This document shows, piece by piece, positions 108 through 20,600 of a stretch of DNA of 41,408 nt (its first letter is position 1; each line of letters starts with the position of its first letter). The DNA comes from Chloroflexota bacterium (lineage in GTDB: Bacteria > Chloroflexota > Limnocylindria > QHBO01). The position numbers were made by a program, and so were the translations under genes. The notes beneath the pieces are model-generated. The model was not told the DNA's origin, searched no databases, and saw only the letters and a program-made list of their open reading frames with translations. Location: contig JBDTQJ010000002.1 in NCBI GenBank assembly GCA_039932235.1, positions 1 through 41,408 on the forward strand, read 5' to 3'.

Positions 108-2243
108 TTACGGTGCGGGTCCCTCCCAGTGGGCGAGATCGTCGTTCTCCCCAAGCTCCTCCCAGGTGCCCATCTCCTCGCCGCCCGCAACAGCCGGCCG
201 CGGCCGCCGCCGACCCGCGCGGAGGTACAGCACGACGCCGAGGAGAGTCGTGCTCGCGATGGCAAGGAGTGGCCAGGGAATCCAGCGATAGTCGAGGAAG
301 CCCACCACCGTCACCGTCACCACCGATTCGCGTCCCAGGGCGTCGGTGGCGACGATCCGCACGTCCGCCGGCCAAGGACCCGCATCGCGCTGGGCCGTGA
401 ACCTACCCTGCGGGTCGACCGGCACGGCGTCGCCGTCGATCGCCACCGTCGCGTAGGCGGAAACGGTGCCCGCTATCGCCGCTTCGAACGAGAACGGCGT
501 TGCCGCGGAGGCCGCCGACAGCGTCGGTGCGGCCAAGAGAACGGACACCCGCCAACGGGTGAGCGTCCCGTTACCGCCTGGCGTGACTGCGACCACGAAG
601 ACATCGCTCTCCCGCGCCAACGTGCCCGCGCGATGGAGGTCGGCGTCGATGACGAGCCGCTCCTCGCCAACCATCCCCTCCTGCGCGGATCCGTCGACCG
701 CGACCATGACACGCGTCCCCGGCGGTGCGTCAATCGTTATCGGGAGGGTCCCACCGGCGGTGAGGACCACACCGTCCGCGGCCGCGACCGCGCCATGGCC
801 CGGCGCAACATGGATCGGGTCGCCGGCACCGTCAGCGACCGAGCGCAGGCGAGTCACCGTCACGGTGGAATCAGCCGCGCCAACGTCGGCCAGGAAGACG
901 CTGCCGCCGGCCGGCTGTCCGAAACCACTGCTGATGACGAGCCACGGCTCATCGCCCCCCGCGACCCCGATCACCGCGCCGCCGACGACGAGGTCACCTT
1001 CGGCGCGCTCGGGGCCGCTGGCCGGGGCCACGACCAGCCGCCCGGACAGGAATATCGCCGGTGTGCCGTCGGGGAGGCCATCCGGCACCGCCCCGGAGAG
1101 GGGCCAGACGAAGTCGGTGGATACGTCCAGCCTCGGCAGGTTGACGAAGTCGAGCCAATCGTCGAATGCGTGGCTCCAGGATGGCAGCCGGCCGATCTCG
1201 TGAAACGCGGCGTCGATGACGCTGACCTCGCCGGACGACGCGGCGGCATCGTGCGTCACGACCATGGGAGGGAGACGATCTCGTGGCGCCCCGAGCGGCG
1301 CGGCGGACCACGTGTTCGGGACCACGTCGCGGATGGTCGGCGGACCATCGTCGGGCCAGTCGACCGCTGCGATGCTCGACGACCCGGCAACGAGGAGCAT
1401 CCCTTCGCCGGCGGCGAGCGGATGGGGCAGGTCGCCGGTGTCGTCACCGATGCGCGGCAGCCGCGCGCGGTCGGCCACCGCCTCACCGGCCGCGTCGAGT
1501 CGAAGGCGCACCGTCTCCCCGCCGAACGTCGGACCGAACAGCATCTCCTCGCCCGGTCGCCCATCGATATCGCCTGTGGCGAGCTGGCCGGCATCGATGC
1601 GGAGCGCGGCGCCGAGCGGCTCCAGCGTCGTCCCGGCGAGGCGGAGCGTTTGCACCGAGATCGGGGTGACTGGCGTAGGTGGCAGGCTGACGACGAGCTC
1701 ATCGGTCCCATCGCCGTCAAGGTCGACGCGTCCCACATTCGTCATCAGCCGCGGCATGCCCGCGAGCCGGTCGAGGATGAGATCCGCCCCGTCGTCGAGG
1801 CCCACCAACCAGGCATCGGTACAGCACACACCCGCGAAGGTGGAGCCGGAGCCGGCGGTGAAGAGGAGCACCGCGGGTGCGCCACCGCGACGGATCGGCA
1901 GCAGGGCCACCGCCGCGTCCGCCGCGATCCCGCCGCTGACCCGGACGAGTCGCCCAAGTCCACTGCTGTAGCGCAGCAGCGGAGCGCTGGCCCGCAGCCG
2001 CCAGGCGCCGCCATCGAGGTCCCAGACCTCGACCGCGGTCCGCCCCCCATCCTGACCGACGCGCACGATCTCCCGCACCCCGTCCGCGTCGATGTCGGCC
2101 ACCGTCGACGCGACCGTCGCACCGGGCAGGGTGATGGCGGCCGGCGGGCTCGCCGCCGCGACCCGCCCGACGGGCAGCCCGAGCACCATGATCGCCAGCG
2201 CGCCGAGGGCGCCGGCGAGGACCCGGCCGGGGGCCGCCACCAT
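108..2243 (-). CDS. Secreted, C-terminally membrane-anchored FG-GAP/VCBS (integrin-alpha-like) repeat protein
   Basis: 711-aa ORF with an N-terminal signal-like hydrophobic segment (LAGALGALAIMVLGLPVGRVAAA). It carries repeated DxDxDG-type motifs (DIDADGVREIV, VDLDGDGTDELVV, GDIDGRPGEEMLF), a C-terminal TM helix (WPLLAIASTTLLGVVLYL) and a charged tail. Confidence 0.7.
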   Translation of the reverse strand: MVAAPGRVLAGALGALAIMVLGLPVGRVAAASPPAAITLPGATVASTVADIDADGVREIVRVGQDGGRTAVEVWDLDGGAWRLRASAPLLRYSSGLGRLVRVSGGIAADAAVALLPIRRGGAPAVLLFTAGSGSTFAGVCCTDAWLVGLDDGADLILDRLAGMPRLMTNVGRVDLDGDGTDELVVSLPPTPVTPISVQTLRLAGTTLEPLGAALRIDAGQLATGDIDGRPGEEMLFGPTFGGETVRLRLDAAGEAVADRARLPRIGDDTGDLPHPLAAGEGMLLVAGSSSIAAVDWPDDGPPTIRDVVPNTWSAAPLGAPRDRLPPMVVTHDAAASSGEVSVIDAAFHEIGRLPSWSHAFDDWLDFVNLPRLDVSTDFVWPLSGAVPDGLPDGTPAIFLSGRLVVAPASGPERAEGDLVVGGAVIGVAGGDEPWLVISSGFGQPAGGSVFLADVGAADSTVTVTRLRSVADGAGDPIHVAPGHGAVAAADGVVLTAGGTLPITIDAPPGTRVMVAVDGSAQEGMVGEERLVIDADLHRAGTLARESDVFVVAVTPGGNGTLTRWRVSVLLAAPTLSAASAATPFSFEAAIAGTVSAYATVAIDGDAVPVDPQGRFTAQRDAGPWPADVRIVATDALGRESVVTVTVVGFLDYRWIPWPLLAIASTTLLGVVLYLRAGRRRPRPAVAGGEEMGTWEELGENDDLAHWEGPAP

Positions 2244-2249
2244 GTGCCC

Positions 2250-3401
2250 CTACATCGCCCGCACGCCGAGCAGGTTGCGCGCGATGACCATCCGCTGGAT
2301 CTGGCTCGTCCCCTCGCCGATCTCGGTCAGCTTCGCGTCACGCAGGAAGCGCTCGACGTGGTACTCGGTGATGTAGCCGTAGCCGCCGTGCACCTGGACG
2401 GCATCATTGGTGACGTCGCGTGCCACCTCGGAGGCGAACAGCTTGGCCATCGCCGCCTCGGTCGTGTACGACTTGCCACCATCCTTGAGCCACGCCGCCC
2501 GATAGGTCATCAGGCGCGCCGCGTCGATCTTCATCGCCATGTCGGCGATCATGAATGCGACCCCCTGGAAGGTCGCGATCTGGCGGCCGAACTGTTTGCG
2601 CTCCAGCGAATAGGCGGCAGCCGCCTCGTACGCCGCCTGGGCAAGCCCCAGCGCCATCGCCGCGATACCGATCCGTCCGCCGTCGAGGGTCTTGAGGAAC
2701 AGCTTGTCACCCTCCCCTTCGGCGCCCAGCAGGTTGTCGAGCGGGATGCGGCAGTCCTCGAAGATGAGCTCGCCGGTATTGCTGGCATGGAGCCCCATCT
2801 TCTCCTCCATGCGACCGATGGAGAAGCCGGGCGTATCGGCCTCCACGATGAAGGCGCTGATCTTGCCGCTCTGTTCCTCGCGGTCGGTCACTGCCGTGAC
2901 GATGTAGGTGCCCGCCACCCCCGCGTTGGTGATGAAGCGCTTGCCTCCGTTGAGGACCCATCCGTCACCGTCGCGGTGGGCACGCGTGCGCGTGCCACGG
3001 GAGTCGCTCCCCGCGCCGGGCTCGGTGAGGCCGTATGCACCGATCACTTCCCCGGACGCCATCGGGCGCAGGTACTTCTCCTTCTGCGCGTCCGTGCCGG
3101 AGAGCCAGACCGGGTTGCAGCCGAGCGAGGTGTGGGCGCTGACGATGATGCCCACGGATCCGCTGGCGCGGCTCAGCTCCTCGACGGTGATCGCGTAGGC
3201 CAGCGAATCGAGTCCCGTGCCCCCGATCGACTCGGGGTATGGGACGCCCAGCAGCCCAAGGCCCGCCGCCTCGCGGATGATCTCCATCGGGAACTCGCCA
3301 CTGCGCTCGAGGTCGTCGGCGACCGGCTTGATGCGGCGCTCGGCAAAATCGCGCACGGTGCGCCGGATTTCCTCGTGCTGGGGCGAGAGGGCAAAGTCCA
3401 T
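2250..3401 (-). CDS. Acyl-CoA dehydrogenase (short/medium-chain type)
   Basis: The ORF 2250..3722 was trimmed to the internal ATG at 3401 (MDFALSPQHEEIRR...). The ~383-aa length and motifs are typical of ACADs (GLTEPGAGSD, GGKRFITNA, QVHGGYGY, EIGEGTSQIQR). Confidence 0.95.
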   Translation of the reverse strand: MDFALSPQHEEIRRTVRDFAERRIKPVADDLERSGEFPMEIIREAAGLGLLGVPYPESIGGTGLDSLAYAITVEELSRASGSVGIIVSAHTSLGCNPVWLSGTDAQKEKYLRPMASGEVIGAYGLTEPGAGSDSRGTRTRAHRDGDGWVLNGGKRFITNAGVAGTYIVTAVTDREEQSGKISAFIVEADTPGFSIGRMEEKMGLHASNTGELIFEDCRIPLDNLLGAEGEGDKLFLKTLDGGRIGIAAMALGLAQAAYEAAAAYSLERKQFGRQIATFQGVAFMIADMAMKIDAARLMTYRAAWLKDGGKSYTTEAAMAKLFASEVARDVTNDAVQVHGGYGYITEYHVERFLRDAKLTEIGEGTSQIQRMVIARNLLGVRAM

Positions 3402-14219: not shown

Positions 14220-16250
14220 TCAGGCGACTCGGCTGGTTCGCCCGTTGACGTAGTCGACGAGCACATACTCGCCCAGGTGCTCCGGCTCGACGTAGAAGGC
14301 GCGGCCGCGGTTGATGCGCGACATGAGGTCGACGAACTCCGACAGGTAGCGCGAGCGCTCGAGCATGAACGTATTGATGACGATCCCCTCGCGGGTGCAG
14401 CGCCCCACCTCGCGCAGGGTGGACTGCATGGTCTGCATGGTCGGCGGGTAGCTGAACTCGACCTGCCCATTGGCGATGTGCGCCGTCGGCTCGCCGTCGG
14501 TGATCACCACGATCTGCTTGTTGCCGCCGGATTGACGGCCGAGCAGCTGGCGCGCGATCAGCAGGGCGTGCTGCAGATTGGTGCCGTACTCGAACTCGTA
14601 CGGGCTCAGGGTGGCGATCGCTTCCGGCTTGATCTGGCGCGCGTAGTAGGCGAAGCCCACCACGAACAGACGATCCCGCGGGTACTTGGTAGCGATCAGC
14701 GCATGCAGCGCCATGGCCACCCGCTTGGCAGCCGTCGAACAGCCGCGCAGCAGCATCGAGCGGCTCATGTCGAGCAGCAGGACGGTGCTGGCCACCGTGG
14801 TCTCCTCCGACCGATGGACCTCGAAGTCCTCCGGACCGATGACCACGGGCACGCCCGGTCCACGCCGGCCCATGGCGTTGAACAGGGTGCGGTTGATGTC
14901 GACGCTGAAGCGATCCCCGAACTCGTAGCGCTTCGTCTCGTCGGTCGGCTCGCCGCCACGGCCGGGACGCGGCACCGCGTGGCCGCCGAAGCCCTCCCTG
15001 CGGAGGCGGCCGAAGATCTGGGCGAGGGCCTGGGTGCCGAGCTTGCGGGCCGCCCGCGGGGTGAGCTCCAGCCGCCCCCCATCCCGCTGCAGGTAGCCCG
15101 CGTCCTCGAGGGCCCTGGTCAGCTCGGCGAGCTGGTCGAGCTCGTCGATGGCGTCGTCGCCGCCGAGGTCACGCAGCGCGCCGCGGTCGAGCTTGGCGAG
15201 CGCATCGGGGTCGCGAGCGGCGAGCATCTCGGCCTCCATGGCGTCGAACTGCTGCTGCCGGTCGATGGCGGCCAGGGCGTCGCCGAGGCCCATCGGCTCG
15301 TCGCCGCCGAAGGGATACGGCTCGCCGAACGGGAGGTCGGGGCGCGCCTGCTGGAGGTTGCCGGCCAGACGGGCCATGTCCCAGCGCAGGCGGTCATCGC
15401 GCAGCAGGTCGTCCATCAGCTGCTGCAGCTCGGCACGCTGCTGCGGGCTCATGCTGGCGAGCAGCGACGCCATCTGGGACGCCTGGCGGTGGAGGTGCTC
15501 GACGAGCTCATCGACACTGCCGATCCCCGGCGGGAAATACTGGCCGTGGCTGGCCATGAAGCGGTCGAAGTCCGGCCGCGTGTCGGCGCCGCTGGCGTGC
15601 TTCTCCAGCAGCGCGTTCAGGTCCCGAACCATGTCGCGAATGCCGGTCAGATCCTCGGCGGTGACCTTCTCGACGCCGTCGCGGAGGCCGGAGAAGTACG
15701 TCTGCAGTACCTGCTGGCGCAGCTCATCGGTCAGGGAGCGGAAGGCGTCGCGGGCGGCGTCGTCCATGAACTCGTAGTCGGTGAGGCCATGGAGGCGGCC
15801 GGCCGCGTCATCGGGCAGTGCGTCAAGCCGGTCGCGGTGATGCTGCGCCGTGCGCCGCAGGACCTCCTCCGCCATGCGTGCCGCATCCTGGCCCGCTCCG
15901 GGAACGGCGTCCAGCGCCACTTGCTCGGCCTCGCGAACTCGACGCTCCAACCCCTCGCGCTCGAGGCGCAACACCTCGCTCAGCCGATCGGCGATCCCGT
16001 CCAGCACTCCGCCCAGCTGGCTGCGCTCCAGCTCCTCGCGACGACGGGCGCGGAGCCGCTCGATGATGTCGCGGAGCCCCGGCACGTCGCTGCCGCGTGC
16101 GCCCTGCATGCCGCGCTGCATGAGGCGCTGCAGGGCACGACGCACGTCACCCTCCGCAAGCAGGTCGTCGGCGAGCGACTCGAGGACGTCGTCGGCGTCG
16201 AGGGGCGGCAGCTCCTGGCTGCCGTCCCAGCGCGTGTAGCGGATGCTCAT
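14220..16250 (-). CDS. VWA-domain protein with a long acidic/coiled-coil N-terminal half
   Basis: 676 aa with a C-terminal VWA domain and MIDAS-type LLLDMSRSM. Its start lies 16 nt downstream of the ChlI-like AAA+ gene stop. Confidence 0.85.
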   Translation of the reverse strand: MSIRYTRWDGSQELPPLDADDVLESLADDLLAEGDVRRALQRLMQRGMQGARGSDVPGLRDIIERLRARRREELERSQLGGVLDGIADRLSEVLRLEREGLERRVREAEQVALDAVPGAGQDAARMAEEVLRRTAQHHRDRLDALPDDAAGRLHGLTDYEFMDDAARDAFRSLTDELRQQVLQTYFSGLRDGVEKVTAEDLTGIRDMVRDLNALLEKHASGADTRPDFDRFMASHGQYFPPGIGSVDELVEHLHRQASQMASLLASMSPQQRAELQQLMDDLLRDDRLRWDMARLAGNLQQARPDLPFGEPYPFGGDEPMGLGDALAAIDRQQQFDAMEAEMLAARDPDALAKLDRGALRDLGGDDAIDELDQLAELTRALEDAGYLQRDGGRLELTPRAARKLGTQALAQIFGRLRREGFGGHAVPRPGRGGEPTDETKRYEFGDRFSVDINRTLFNAMGRRGPGVPVVIGPEDFEVHRSEETTVASTVLLLDMSRSMLLRGCSTAAKRVAMALHALIATKYPRDRLFVVGFAYYARQIKPEAIATLSPYEFEYGTNLQHALLIARQLLGRQSGGNKQIVVITDGEPTAHIANGQVEFSYPPTMQTMQSTLREVGRCTREGIVINTFMLERSRYLSEFVDLMSRINRGRAFYVEPEHLGEYVLVDYVNGRTSRVA

Positions 16251-17697: not shown

Positions 17698-18587
17698 GGG
17701 GCAGCTCCATAGTCTGCGAGCGCCATCGAGACGCTCACCGGGTCACAGGCGCCGCGCTCGGCCAGCGCGGCAAGGAAGGCGGACCGATGCGCCAGCTCGG
17801 CCTCGAAGGTGGCGGCATCCCTCCCCAGGCTGGCCGCCAGGACGGCGTAGGCGGCGTGATCGTGCACCAGCGGCCGGTGCGCTCGACCACCGTCATCGGG
17901 CAGGAATGGCGGCTCCGGCAGGCGCTGGGCGCCGGTCAGCGACGGGGAGCGCTCGCCCTCGATGGCGGCCAGTCGGACGGGTGCCAACGCACCACGCTCG
18001 TCGAGGCGCAGATGCCACGCCTCCTCGACGCGGCGGTACATGCCGGCGGGGGTCTGATACGCCGACCACTGGAGGTAGATGGTGAGGCCGGCGAGGTCCG
18101 CATCGGTCGCGCCGAGGTCGTCGCGCAGCGCGTCGAGCGCCTCCGGAAGGGAATCCGCGTGCATCGTGGCGCCAAGCCCGTAGCCGCTTCCGGCGAGGCG
18201 CAGGGCGCCCTGCGCCGCACGGCCCCAGACGTAGATCGGGAGGTGGTCGCTCATCTCGTTGATGAGCAGGTAGCCGCGTTCAGCCGGGACCTCATCGGTC
18301 CAGTCGAAATCGGCGAACCAGCCACGCAGGAAGATGCCGACCGTCCCCTCCGGGAGGAAGTCGACGAGCGCCGAGAGGGTCGTCGTCTTGCCGGCCTGCG
18401 GTGCCTCGCTGCTGAGCATGACGCTCTTGCGCCGCGCCATGACCGCCCAGAGGGTGGCCATCAGCCGCTGGTCGATGGCGCCCGAGCCCACGATCTCGAC
18501 CGCGCTCATCGGCTGCGGGGGCGCCCAGTGGTAGCCCCACCAACCCTCGGGGAAGCGGTTCACCCAGGCGCTCAGGGAGCCGGACAT
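17694..18587 (-). CDS. Minimal T2SS/T4P/T4SS-type (VirB11/CpaF-like) P-loop ATPase
   Basis: Walker A APQAGKTTTLSAL, Glu-box GYLLINEM and His-box GATMHADS. The ATG at 18587 is preferred because the longest ORF (to 18626) would start at TTG. There is no N-terminal domain. Confidence 0.65.
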   Translation of the reverse strand: MSGSLSAWVNRFPEGWWGYHWAPPQPMSAVEIVGSGAIDQRLMATLWAVMARRKSVMLSSEAPQAGKTTTLSALVDFLPEGTVGIFLRGWFADFDWTDEVPAERGYLLINEMSDHLPIYVWGRAAQGALRLAGSGYGLGATMHADSLPEALDALRDDLGATDADLAGLTIYLQWSAYQTPAGMYRRVEEAWHLRLDERGALAPVRLAAIEGERSPSLTGAQRLPEPPFLPDDGGRAHRPLVHDHAAYAVLAASLGRDAATFEAELAHRSAFLAALAERGACDPVSVSMALADYGAAP

Positions 18588-18660
18588 CGTGCGGGCCACG
18601 GTACGCGGGGGACGAGGTGCCTGCAACCACGCGTCGGCCGGGGGCCCCGGGCCGGTGGGG

Positions 18661-18800
18661 TTGCACTAGATGTAGGCAAGTGGCGGAGGAGCGGCTGCGT
18701 TGACCGGGTTCTGTGCGGCGGGTGCACGGCACGCTGCCGAAAGGAGCGGCAAGAGGCTGCTACTCCGCTGGTTGCCACCACCCGATGCAACGCATCGGTC
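18661..18800. repeat. Copy 1 of a diverged 140-bp direct repeat
   Basis: It aligns without gaps to 19508..19647 (102/140 identical by my hand count, offset 847 bp). The perfect 24-nt core gaggctgctactccgctggttgcc lies at 18753..18776. Confidence 0.85.
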
Positions 18801-18805
18801 GAGGC

Positions 18806-19468
18806 TCAGATGAACACGATCCCGTTGGCGCTCGGGTCGCGTCCCTCGTGCAGGGCGGCGAGGACCTGGCGCGTGGTGAGCGGGAAGGAACGGCGCAGCG
18901 CCTCGCCGGCTTCGCGAACCTGACGGCGGTTGGCCTCGGTCTCGGCGAAGACCAGGATGAGCCTGTCGGCGCCGCCATCGAGCTGCTTGCGAAGGCTCGC
19001 GCGTGCCTGGGCCTGCACGTCGCGCACCCGTGACCAGATGTCGAACGCGACGCGGCAACCAGGCTGGAGCGCGCCGGCATCGAAGGCGCGCAGATCGTGC
19101 GGGGCCACGAGCATCTCGATGATCCATCTCCACGGTGGACCGATATGCGGCGCCAATCTGTTCAGGACGCGCAGCTGTCCCGCGTCCCGGATCGCCGAAC
19201 CAAGCGGCAGCATGTTGATCCGCAGCACGAGGCCCAAGACGGCGGCATGTCGCGCGAGATGCCGAATGGTCAGCCGGGAGACGCGGCCACGTTCGACGCG
19301 GCTGATGGTCGCAGCGGAGCAGCCGAGCGCCCGTCCCACGCTTCCCTGGCTGATTCCGGCGATCAGGCGTGCTCGACGCAGCTCGTCGCCCAGTTCACGG
19401 CGGAGCCTGTCCCCTAGCCTGTTGGCCTCGTCGAGGCGGCGAACTGAAGCGGGCATGAGACCGATCAT
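18806..19468 (-). CDS. XRE-family HTH protein with an uncharacterised ~130-aa C-terminal domain
   Basis: The HTH_3 signature is LRRARLIAGISQGSVGRALGCSAATISRVERG. I do not recognise the C-terminal region. Confidence 0.85.
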   Translation of the reverse strand: MIGLMPASVRRLDEANRLGDRLRRELGDELRRARLIAGISQGSVGRALGCSAATISRVERGRVSRLTIRHLARHAAVLGLVLRINMLPLGSAIRDAGQLRVLNRLAPHIGPPWRWIIEMLVAPHDLRAFDAGALQPGCRVAFDIWSRVRDVQAQARASLRKQLDGGADRLILVFAETEANRRQVREAGEALRRSFPLTTRQVLAALHEGRDPSANGIVFI

Positions 19469-19507
19469 GGCGCGGCGGCGTTACCGGGCCCTTAGCGGCG
19501 GATTAGC

Positions 19508-19647
19508 TTGCATCCGATGTCGGGGTCCGGCGGAGGATCCGATGAATTGACCGCCTCTTGTGCACGCGGTGCACTGGACCCTGCCGAAACGACCTGACGG
19601 AGGCTGCTACTCCGCTGGTTGCCGCCACCGGATGCAAAGGACCGTCG
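19508..19647. repeat. Copy 2 of the diverged 140-bp direct repeat
   Basis: See copy 1. The identical 24-nt core lies at 19600..19623, and the copy contains TTGACC-N17-TGCACT on the plus strand. Confidence 0.85.
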
Positions 19648-19679
19648 CGAAATCAAGGTGCCGCCGGTACCCTCGGTCC

Positions 19680-20600
19680 ATGCAGCTCCTGCAGCGGCGG
19701 CGTTCCTGGGCCGGAGCCACCCTCTGGGCGCTGGCCACCATCGGGATGATCAGCTTCGCGGCGTACCTGGTTGAGATCATCGTCCTCGACGGGGGCATCG
19801 GCTACGACCTGCATGCCTACGTGCTTGCCGGCCGCCATGCCCTGGAGGGGCAGCCGCTGTACGGCGAGATGATGATCGGCGACCCGGGGGCGTACCGCTA
19901 CCCGCCGACCTTCGCGTACCTCGCCATTCCGCTCGCCCTCCCGCCCGAGCTGGCGGTCACATGGGCCTATCGCGCCGCCTGCGTCGGGTGCGTCCGGGTC
20001 CTGACCGGCTCGTGGCGCTGGACAGGGGTTGCGCTCCTCTTCCAGCCGCTCCAGATCGAGCTCGTCTCTCTGAACGTGACGCTGCCGATCGCGTGCGCCG
20101 CTCGTGCCGCTCTGCGCGGGTCGCGATCCGGCGCCGTGCTGACGCCCGCGTCGGCGGCGCTGAAGTATGGGAGCGCGCTGTTGATCCCCTTCCTGTGGTG
20201 GCGGGCCCCATGGCTGCGCCGGTCGCTCCTCGTGGGGGCCCTGGCGCTGCTTGCGCTGTTCGCCATCCACGCCGCCCTGCGGCCAGCCGACTGGACGGAC
20301 TACGTCGCATCCCTCGTCCAGCAGTCGGCATCCGCCAACCAGGCACCGTTCGTCGGCGACCAGCTGCTGGTGCTCGTCCCATCGACGCTGTGGGACTTCG
20401 CGCTGCGCTTCGCGCTGTGCGGCGTGGCGATCTGGCTCGCGATCTGGCGTGGCTGGGGGTGGCTCGCGTTCGCCGCCGCCGCGCTGGCCGTTCCCACGCT
20501 GTGGGTGGCACGCCTCGCGGCGCTGGTCGGCGTGCCGCGGCTGTGGTGGGAGGAGCGGGTCAGGCGCGCAGAATCCGCCGCCCCAGCGCCGCGCGCATGA
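19680..20600 (+). CDS. Polytopic membrane protein, GT87/DUF2029-like glycosyltransferase
   Basis: Internal ATG at 19680 (MQLLQRRRSWAGATLWALATIG...). It has multiple TM helices and an N-terminal loop YDLHAYVLAGRHALEGQPLY resembling the DUF2029 motif. It is shorter (306 aa) than I would expect for the family. Confidence 0.6.
   Translation: MQLLQRRRSWAGATLWALATIGMISFAAYLVEIIVLDGGIGYDLHAYVLAGRHALEGQPLYGEMMIGDPGAYRYPPTFAYLAIPLALPPELAVTWAYRAACVGCVRVLTGSWRWTGVALLFQPLQIELVSLNVTLPIACAARAALRGSRSGAVLTPASAALKYGSALLIPFLWWRAPWLRRSLLVGALALLALFAIHAALRPADWTDYVASLVQQSASANQAPFVGDQLLVLVPSTLWDFALRFALCGVAIWLAIWRGWGWLAFAAAALAVPTLWVARLAALVGVPRLWWEERVRRAESAAPAPRA

Follow-up and report, generated by a model that had tools for sequence, protein, structure and literature searches.

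The window analysed here, a stretch of 41,408 nucleotides from a Chloroflexota bacterium (assembly GCA_039932235.1, contig JBDTQJ010000002.1, positions 1 to 41,408), carries a gene for an XRE-type regulator that is bracketed by two diverged direct repeats, copy 2 preceding the gene and copy 1 following it, ahead of an operon encoding an ATPase/AAA+/VWA module (Table 1). We favour, with moderate confidence, the reading that these repeats, hereafter units, are helically phased binding arrays of the adjacent XRE regulator, through which it would control both its own gene and the promoter of the ATPase module, a reading drawn from the comparison of sequences between related loci.

A repeat search of the window returned a single family of direct repeats, pairing 18650-18797 with 19497-19644 over 148 nt at 72% identity, without gaps and at an offset of 847. 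The original prediction had described a 140-bp pair (18661-18800 and 19508-19647), and the pair and its constant offset are real, although recounting gave 101 identities of 140 rather than 102; random pairs of 140-mers from this window (71% GC) share 41.2 +/- 6.4 identities with a maximum of 72 (n = 200,000), and the second-best placement of copy 2 anywhere in the window reaches 64. The 24-nt core reported as perfectly conserved was likewise confirmed, since it occurs exactly twice even when three mismatches are allowed, where shuffled sequences are expected to contain none. It comprises a CAAC..GGAG island that is conserved throughout the family beside the first of the boxes described below (box A), together with 10 nt of spacer that is variable in other loci; TAGCAGCCTC of the 24-mer shows no conservation between loci (alignment A3). 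The perfect match therefore lies partly in an otherwise variable spacer, which points to homogenisation of the two copies within this locus.

Public data contain 117 relatives of the XRE protein, and those that are named come from soil metagenome-assembled genomes (MAGs) of Candidatus Limnocylindria (Chloroflexota). Comparison loci were obtained by look-ups by protein identity and one metagenome scan (65 loci), and a profile of the unit was built by iterated nhmmer searches seeded with the two window copies and three copies from locus L005. The profile matched 37 units in approximately 20 metagenomic Candidatus Limnocylindria loci, all of which encode an XRE protein at least 62% identical to that of the window. 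All 37 units, each approximately 115-155 bp long, lie in the flanks of the XRE gene and are oriented in its sense. In most loci 41-74 nt (up to 153 nt) separate the end of the upstream unit from the XRE ATG, and the downstream unit starts 3-25 nt past the XRE stop and is frequently doubled in tandem. Across the whole window the profile matched only the two known copies; copy 1, whose 140-bp portion reaches to within 5 nt of the XRE stop codon (18806-18808), as had been predicted, begins as a unit 7 nt past that stop in the sense of the XRE gene and ends 24 nt before a -35-like hexamer of the ATPase operon. Exact matches to TGCAC-N3-GTGCA in L002, L003 and L005 all fall within the XRE flanks.

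It is the XRE gene, and not the ATPase module, that the units accompany. Locus L002 has the XRE gene with units on both sides in an unrelated context (glycosidases, FAD oxidoreductase) without the ATPase module, and nine loci with the ATPase module and without XRE (60 kb in total) contained no unit and no box except for one match in coding sequence. No unit was found away from the XRE gene in approximately 180 kb of XRE loci or in the 60 kb of XRE-less loci, and an exact scan of 185,579 species-representative genomes with the core 20-mer gave one match, in a coding region of an unrelated Chloroflexia MAG, which we attribute to chance. The copy number of the unit varies, several relatives carrying tandem pairs (62-92% identical, 8-26 nt apart) instead of one. 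A small open reading frame (ORF) after the GGAG of the unit was considered and rejected, its frame and length differing between the L005 copies.

Within each unit lie three palindromic boxes of 15 bp (A, B and C) that follow the pattern (T/G)TGCAY-N3-RTGCA(A/C), so that two-fold-symmetric sites of 13-17 bp, as expected of XRE-family operators, are present; perfect 6-N3-6 palindromes occur in the window, in L013 and L016 and in several distant clades. Symmetric islands accompany the boxes: CAAC..GGAG follows box A, GATTC and GAAT(C) flank box B, and CTCC..GTTG precedes box C. Taken together these parts make the unit a quasi-palindrome with box B at its centre, which accounts for an inverted repeat (I1; arms of 28 nt at 79%). 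The original prediction had reported no convincing hairpin and a core that is not palindromic; this holds for the 24-nt core, whereas the whole unit is quasi-palindromic and its three palindromic boxes had gone unrecognised.

The distances between box centres are quantised, with A-B distances of only 61-63, 72, 82, 93/94 or 103 bp and B-C distances of only 51/52 or 62/63 bp, two degenerate units being the exceptions, which indicates that insertions and deletions occur in steps of approximately 10 bp. These spacings correspond to 5 to 10 helical turns, and in the window to 6 turns between A and B and 5 between B and C. The Rayleigh statistic for this phasing (R = 0.89, period 10.3 bp, phase near 0) is inflated by shared ancestry, the distances representing approximately 5 independent indel classes, each of which deviates from a multiple of 10.3 bp by no more than approximately 1 bp. 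Three TTGCGC-N3-GCGCAA boxes, spaced by 82 and 83 bp, are present in L054, which represents a distant clade.

Across clades the half-site changes together with the recognition helix of the helix-turn-helix (HTH) domain, in a comparison that is qualitative and carries no phylogenetic correction. Proteins with the recognition helix SA(A/S)T or D(K/R)AT accompany TGCAC boxes, those with SxAR or SVSR accompany TTGCGC-N3-GCGCAA, SRFH goes with GAGCGC-N3-GCGCTC, STSH with TCCCGC-N3-GCGGGA, and SPSE or SASE (L045/L048) with unrelated repeats. A helix residue T pairs with TGCAC, R, H or K with TGCGC and related half-sites, and E with the unrelated repeats.

Both units of the window lie upstream of promoter-like elements. 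The XRE gene starts at ATG 19456 (216 aa, MPA...), as in all homologues, and not at 19468, so that copy 2, claimed to lie 40 nt upstream of the start, is separated from it by 51 nt. A -10-like hexamer stands 7 nt before this ATG, and the same leaderless-type arrangement (NANNAT-N6/7-ATG) is found upstream of all XRE genes of near and distant clades (30 loci). It is preceded in nearly all of approximately 30 loci, in all clades, by two or three GNTAA(G/C/T) hexamers with an 11-nt period; these 11-bp repeats over the XRE -35 region are reminiscent of OmpR/PhoB-type activator boxes, and in L004 and L005 a response regulator and kinase are encoded as a pair a few genes upstream. The position of copy 1 upstream of the ATPase module was correctly noted, the start of that module being, however, ATG 18587 (297 aa), as in approximately 120 homologues among the matches listed, and not the candidate TTG 18626. 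A TTGCRS-N17/18-(CG)CGTACCGT-N9/10-ATG element is common to 8 XRE-bearing loci and to the XRE-less L071 and L073, and the reading frame across it varies, which marks it as non-coding. The TTG at 18626 that opens the longest ATPase ORF is itself the -35-like hexamer of this element.

Measured from its centre, the proximal box precedes the XRE ATG by 59-108 nt and the ATPase -35-like hexamer by 30-47 nt (up to 127 nt), which suggests that the units are upstream elements of two promoters and not transcribed leaders, the transcription starts being putative. A scan for consensus promoters and terminators found none, and no strong sigma-70 promoter; the proposed elements match only TTG and TA...T, so that it is their conservation that argues for these assignments. 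The plus-strand promoter that had been proposed within copy 2 (TTGACC-N17-TGCACT) is not conserved, relatives reading GAAT(C/G) at that position (alignment A3).

Table 1. Features of the window (upper rows) and of comparison loci (last rows, prefixed with the locus); box centres were taken from alignment A3.
Feature	Coordinates	Strand	Remarks
First gene of the ATPase/AAA+/VWA module, 297 aa	17694..18587	-	Candidate second target of the arrays
ATPase promoter-like element	18585..18626	-	TTGCAG 18621-18626, N17, TACCGT 18598-18603, N10, ATG 18585-18587
Unit 2-XRE-unit 1 block, 1,052 bp	18629..19680		Replaced by 21 bp in L071 (L071:3439-3459)
Unit copy 1	18650..18798	-	nhmmer 77 bits, E 1.6e-23
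Copy 1 box C	18661..18675	-	CTACATCTAGTGCAA; centre 42 nt upstream of -35-like TTGCAG
Copy 1 box B	18713..18727	-	GTGCACCCGCCGCAC
24-nt perfect core, copy 1	18753..18776	-	GGCAACCAGCGGAGTAGCAGCCTC in XRE sense; second copy 19600-19623
Copy 1 box A	18776..18790	-	TTGCATCGGGTGGTG
XRE-type gene, 216 aa	18806..19456	-	HTH_31 at residues ~25-80 (Pfam); C-terminal domain 88-216
-10-like hexamer CATGAT	19464..19469	-	7 nt before XRE ATG, leaderless-type geometry; putative promoter
Hexamers GCTAAT, GCTAAG, GGTAAC	19480..19507	-	11-nt period; between box C and -10-like element
Unit copy 2	19497..19651	-	Upstream of XRE, ends ~41 nt before ATG 19456; nhmmer 83 bits, E 1.7e-25
Copy 2 box C	19508..19522	-	CGACATCGGATGCAA; centre 59 nt upstream of XRE ATG
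Copy 2 box B	19560..19574	-	GTGCACCGCGTGCAC; perfect 6-N3-6 palindrome
Copy 2 box A	19623..19637	-	TTGCATCCGGTGGCG; right half-site degenerate
GT87-like gene, divergent	19680..20600	+	Start aligns with GTG start in L071
Tandem units	L005:6127-6444		Downstream of XRE
Tandem units	L007:1808-2122		Downstream of XRE
Tandem units	L008:1476-1782		Downstream of XRE
Tandem units	L019:2155-2463		Downstream of XRE
Tandem units	L013:821-1160		Upstream of XRE
L045 repeats	L045:1311-1451 / 2163-2303		Contain GGCCA-N5-TGGCC palindromes

XRE regulators are commonly autoregulatory dimers that act on palindromes, according to PMC12565409. In the mechanism that we propose, dimers of the XRE-type HTH protein, which we infer to be the binder, would occupy the three two-fold-symmetric boxes of each unit, held on one face of the helix, and the C-terminal domain would probably let bound dimers interact, whether by cooperative binding, by wrapping, or by looping between the arrays 847 bp apart. 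Autoregulation would be the role of the array that precedes the regulator's leaderless-type promoter by approximately 60 bp, and control of the ATPase/AAA+/VWA module that of the second array, which stands approximately 40 bp ahead of the -35 of the operon, the sign of regulation being presumptive in both cases. A shared operator for XRE and the ATPase module was one of the options in the original prediction and is the best supported of them, with the amendment that the units belong with XRE and lie upstream of the promoter-like elements; the ATPase module keeps its own core promoter-like element and exists without XRE or units in most relatives.

Several observations weigh against this mechanism. 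The units lie upstream of the promoters and not over them, which is unusual for a simple repressor; L004 has no upstream unit; and the downstream unit of L002 faces a convergent gene, so that there is no promoter there to regulate. In the window boxes A and C are half-degenerate, with the outer half-sites alone kept, and the islands CAAC/GTTG, GGAG/CTCC and GATTC/GAATC go beyond what a simple site for an HTH dimer would contain. To these must be added the shared ancestry behind the phasing statistic.

The regulator itself combines a familiar DNA-binding domain with an unfamiliar partner. The nearest HTH structures to its HTH domain are those of ClgR, C-proteins, HipB and SinR, whereas residues 88-216 matched no family in Pfam, NCBIfam or PADLOC, and PADLOC made no defence-system assignment for either XRE or the ATPase module. 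A fold search with the full-length model (AlphaFold pLDDT 91) matched the HTH only, and the C-terminal domain was therefore modelled separately (pLDDT 93). The predicted topology is alpha-beta-beta-beta-alpha-beta (H-E-E-E-H-E), a restriction-endonuclease-like arrangement with a PD-(D/E)xK core fold, and the leading Foldseek matches were R2 RLE, Bax1, AF1548, OkrAI, Hjc, Can2, EcoT38I and PaqCI, with weak scores throughout (E 7e-3 to 0.1, TM 0.3-0.56). Among many other invariant charged residues, beta-2 carries an invariant D126 and beta-3 a conserved D/E139, the x+2 residue being W or I instead of K; R143, Q148, Q150 and K157 nearby are invariant. The modelled domain is thus predicted to adopt a restriction-endonuclease-like fold and to be a putative member of the nuclease superfamily. 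Its family comprises approximately 1,021 clusters at 50% identity (673 at E <= 1e-10), with members almost all approximately 217 aa in length and the domain at residues 88-217. No XRE homologue was found in phage and plasmid collections.

Such a fold invites an alternative in which the units are DNA substrates, quasi-palindromes whose extruded hairpins or cruciforms the nuclease-like domain would recognise or cut, the whole forming an excisable, insertable or homing cassette. We regard this as unlikely. The invariant D126 and conserved D/E139 of the PD-(D/E)xK-type fold speak for it, and so does a clean polymorphism with respect to L071, the closest relative (ATPase 93% identical, same GNAT-ALDH-SRPBCC-GT87 synteny), in which the 1,052-bp block is missing: blastn aligned window 22998-19681 with L071 124-3438 and window 18628-14195 with L071 3460-7894, and the block ends within approximately 30 nt of the outer unit ends. 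XRE is distributed patchily over the ATPase tree, which takes a minimum of two gains or losses to explain, the block occurs in L002 in unrelated surroundings, and the perfect 24-mer, being partly in variable spacer, suggests homogenisation specific to the window. In L045 and L048, which belong to a distant XRE clade (41% identity), the gene is bracketed by different 141-nt direct repeats that are 95% identical, and directly before the L045 repeats lies the 3' end of an IS481-like DDE transposase ORF (L045:1-1296).

Set against this are the absence of a target-site duplication at the indel junctions with L071 and the history of the locus. The window groups with the XRE-less L071 and L073 in the ATPase tree (support 100/99), and in the XRE tree its copy is sister to all other close-clade copies (support 85/83), so that the two trees are congruent, with the window basal in both, which fits vertical descent plus losses. 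The upstream and downstream units of L006 and L007 are positionally orthologous, and together with the congruent trees this makes a recent insertion less likely than an ancient arrangement that was repeatedly lost in full. The scar of a cassette-like insertion, another option of the original prediction, is thus borne out as a discrete presence or absence of 1,052 bp and disfavoured as a recent event. The fold argument is itself weakened by the replacement of the (D/E)xK lysine by W or I and by the weak Foldseek E-values, the arms are only approximately 70% complementary, with many transversions, spacing in quanta of 10.3 bp is a feature of B-DNA and not of hairpins, and phage and plasmid collections gave no match. 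A bolder version, in which the unit-gene-unit block is an autonomous DNA-processing cassette whose HTH docks on the boxes while the nuclease-like domain acts on the quasi-palindromic units, for example as extruded cruciforms, is in our judgement very unlikely. Were it true, cassette activity would lead to excision, homing or copy-number change of the block, would explain both its presence or absence at a fixed site and the homogenisation of the repeats, and would make the block, in Chloroflexota, a small mobile or self-editing element of a type not described before.

The boxes could also be bound by another protein, either a host factor or a regulator encoded elsewhere, and merely be linked to XRE. 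The GGAG/CTCC islands and the GNTAAG repeats with their 11-nt period do suggest more than one factor, but the units co-occur strictly with XRE across different genomic contexts and half-site changes track those of the XRE recognition helix, and we consider this explanation quite unlikely.

The possibility that the units act as structured RNA, whether as a leader or attenuator for XRE and the ATPase operon, as a terminator or processing hairpin after XRE, or as a small RNA, is very unlikely, and the structured RNA or repeat element entertained in the original prediction is not upheld by Rfam, the consensus fold, pairing statistics or copy number. Single-sequence folds are somewhat more stable than shuffles (z = -2.0 to -3.5, both strands), and the long inverted repeat I1, the covarying symmetric columns 21/228, 36/213 and 56/202, and the start of the downstream unit so shortly after the XRE stop in most loci would all suit an RNA. 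Covariation is, however, also expected if all half-sites follow the specificity of one protein. The RNAalifold consensus amounts to just -3.4 kcal/mol with 14 pairs, and the full symmetric structure pairs in 74% of cells against 70% from column composition alone; strand bias is absent from the wobble-compatible mismatches (54 sense, 61 antisense), the imperfectly complementary arms contain 150 mismatches by transversion, and the box spacers are unpaired. Indels in 10.3-bp quanta, and an upstream copy located 5' of the conserved leaderless-type -10, likewise argue against an RNA. Rfam gave no match at gathering thresholds across the whole window, and within 18500-19800 only chance-level matches at E <= 10 (E >= 1.1). 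The best of these, Moco-II at 18580-18625 (E = 1.1), was rejected as chance and falls on the conserved ATPase promoter-like element. A generic dispersed repeat of the REP/REPIN/MITE type that is here by chance would fit the quasi-palindromic unit of approximately 150 bp, its TTGCA...TGCAA ends, which resemble terminal inverted repeats, and the tandem copies of some loci, but is extremely improbable given just two copies in 41 kb, none away from XRE in approximately 240 kb of loci examined, no true match of the core 20-mer in the species-representative genomes, and a fixed orientation and placement with respect to the gene.

The stretch that separates the GT87-like gene from the ATPase gene is a hotspot of gene flux in Limnocylindria. 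L071 has no gene there (61 nt between start codons), L073 has a metallophosphatase, L077-L079 have a guanylate cyclase, and the window has the XRE block, which is slightly lower in GC (68.4%; 0.81 at third codon positions) than its neighbours (72%; 0.89). A TANNNT hexamer lies 6-7 nt before the GT87-like start in both the window (TACCCT-N6-ATG, 19665-19679, plus strand) and L071 (TAGGCT-N7-GTG, L071:3440-3461), which fits leaderless-type promoters. At the other side of the block, orthologues in L071 and L073 of the 676-aa VWA protein (window 14220-16250, minus strand) contain Mb0984_helical and Rv0959_3rd (Pfam), and this links the module to the Rv0958/Rv0959 pair of mycobacteria.

Binding arrays of the XRE regulator, as we favour, would provide a concrete and testable assignment of a regulator to its sites in Candidatus Limnocylindria, an abundant class of soil bacteria without a cultured model, and would identify the region from which the conserved ATPase/AAA+/VWA module (Rv0958/Rv0959-like) is likely to be controlled. 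The XRE layer of control over this module appears to be optional and to have been lost in the closest relative, L071. The analysis also defines an uncharacterised family of approximately 1,000 clusters at 50% identity that joins an HTH to a predicted restriction-endonuclease-like domain at a uniform length of approximately 217 aa. The phasing is unusually clean, three sites being kept in register through 10-bp indels, and would make these loci a good natural system for the study of cooperative binding, wrapping and looping.

The element is most likely a real regulatory element and not a new kind of system, and comparison with known systems bears on where it belongs. The autoregulated XRE regulators (ClgR, C-proteins, HipB, SinR; PMC12565409) share the sequence and fold of the HTH and have palindromic sites upstream of their own genes, but they use one or two sites, usually overlapping the promoter, and none of them is known to have a nuclease-fold domain of 130 residues or a three-box unit of 150 bp both before and after the gene. 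RAYT/REPIN systems and integron attC sites resemble the locus in that imperfect palindromic repeats of approximately 60-150 bp stand on either side of a single gene, whose protein has a nuclease-type fold; RAYTs, however, are HUH/Y1 enzymes and REPINs occur in hundreds of dispersed copies, whereas the loci examined here show no dispersal. An attC site has RYYYAAC/GTTRRRY at its outer ends and needs an integrase, while here the outer ends are TTGCA/TGCAA. An integron origin was rejected, as CAAC/GTTG is internal (approximately 15 nt inside the ends) and preceded by G-rich and not pyrimidine positions, the tandem units 8-26 nt apart have no ORF between them, and synteny is stable.

Coliphage 186 CI with its FL and FR sites, DeoR and GalR form oligomers that wrap or loop DNA, distal flanking sites assisting proximal ones, and they are similar in having multiple helically phased sites across more than 100 bp, though neither the XRE protein nor its sites are homologous to theirs. 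Lambda CI is a repressor with an HTH of the XRE/Cro-C1 type and a C-terminal oligomerisation domain that binds cooperatively and loops DNA between OL and OR; it regulates itself and a neighbouring promoter, and its gene is bracketed by two arrays of three two-fold-symmetric sites, each approximately 17 bp long, adjacent (approximately 23-24 bp from centre to centre) and overlapping promoters. In the units described here the sites are instead 52-103 bp apart and upstream of promoter-like elements, the arrays are direct repeats, there is no prophage context or match in phage records, and the C-terminal fold is of the nuclease type and not an S24 peptidase. With its two three-site arrays bracketing a regulator gene, lambda OL/OR is nonetheless the nearest analogy for the locus, as a likeness of arrangement and not of family membership.

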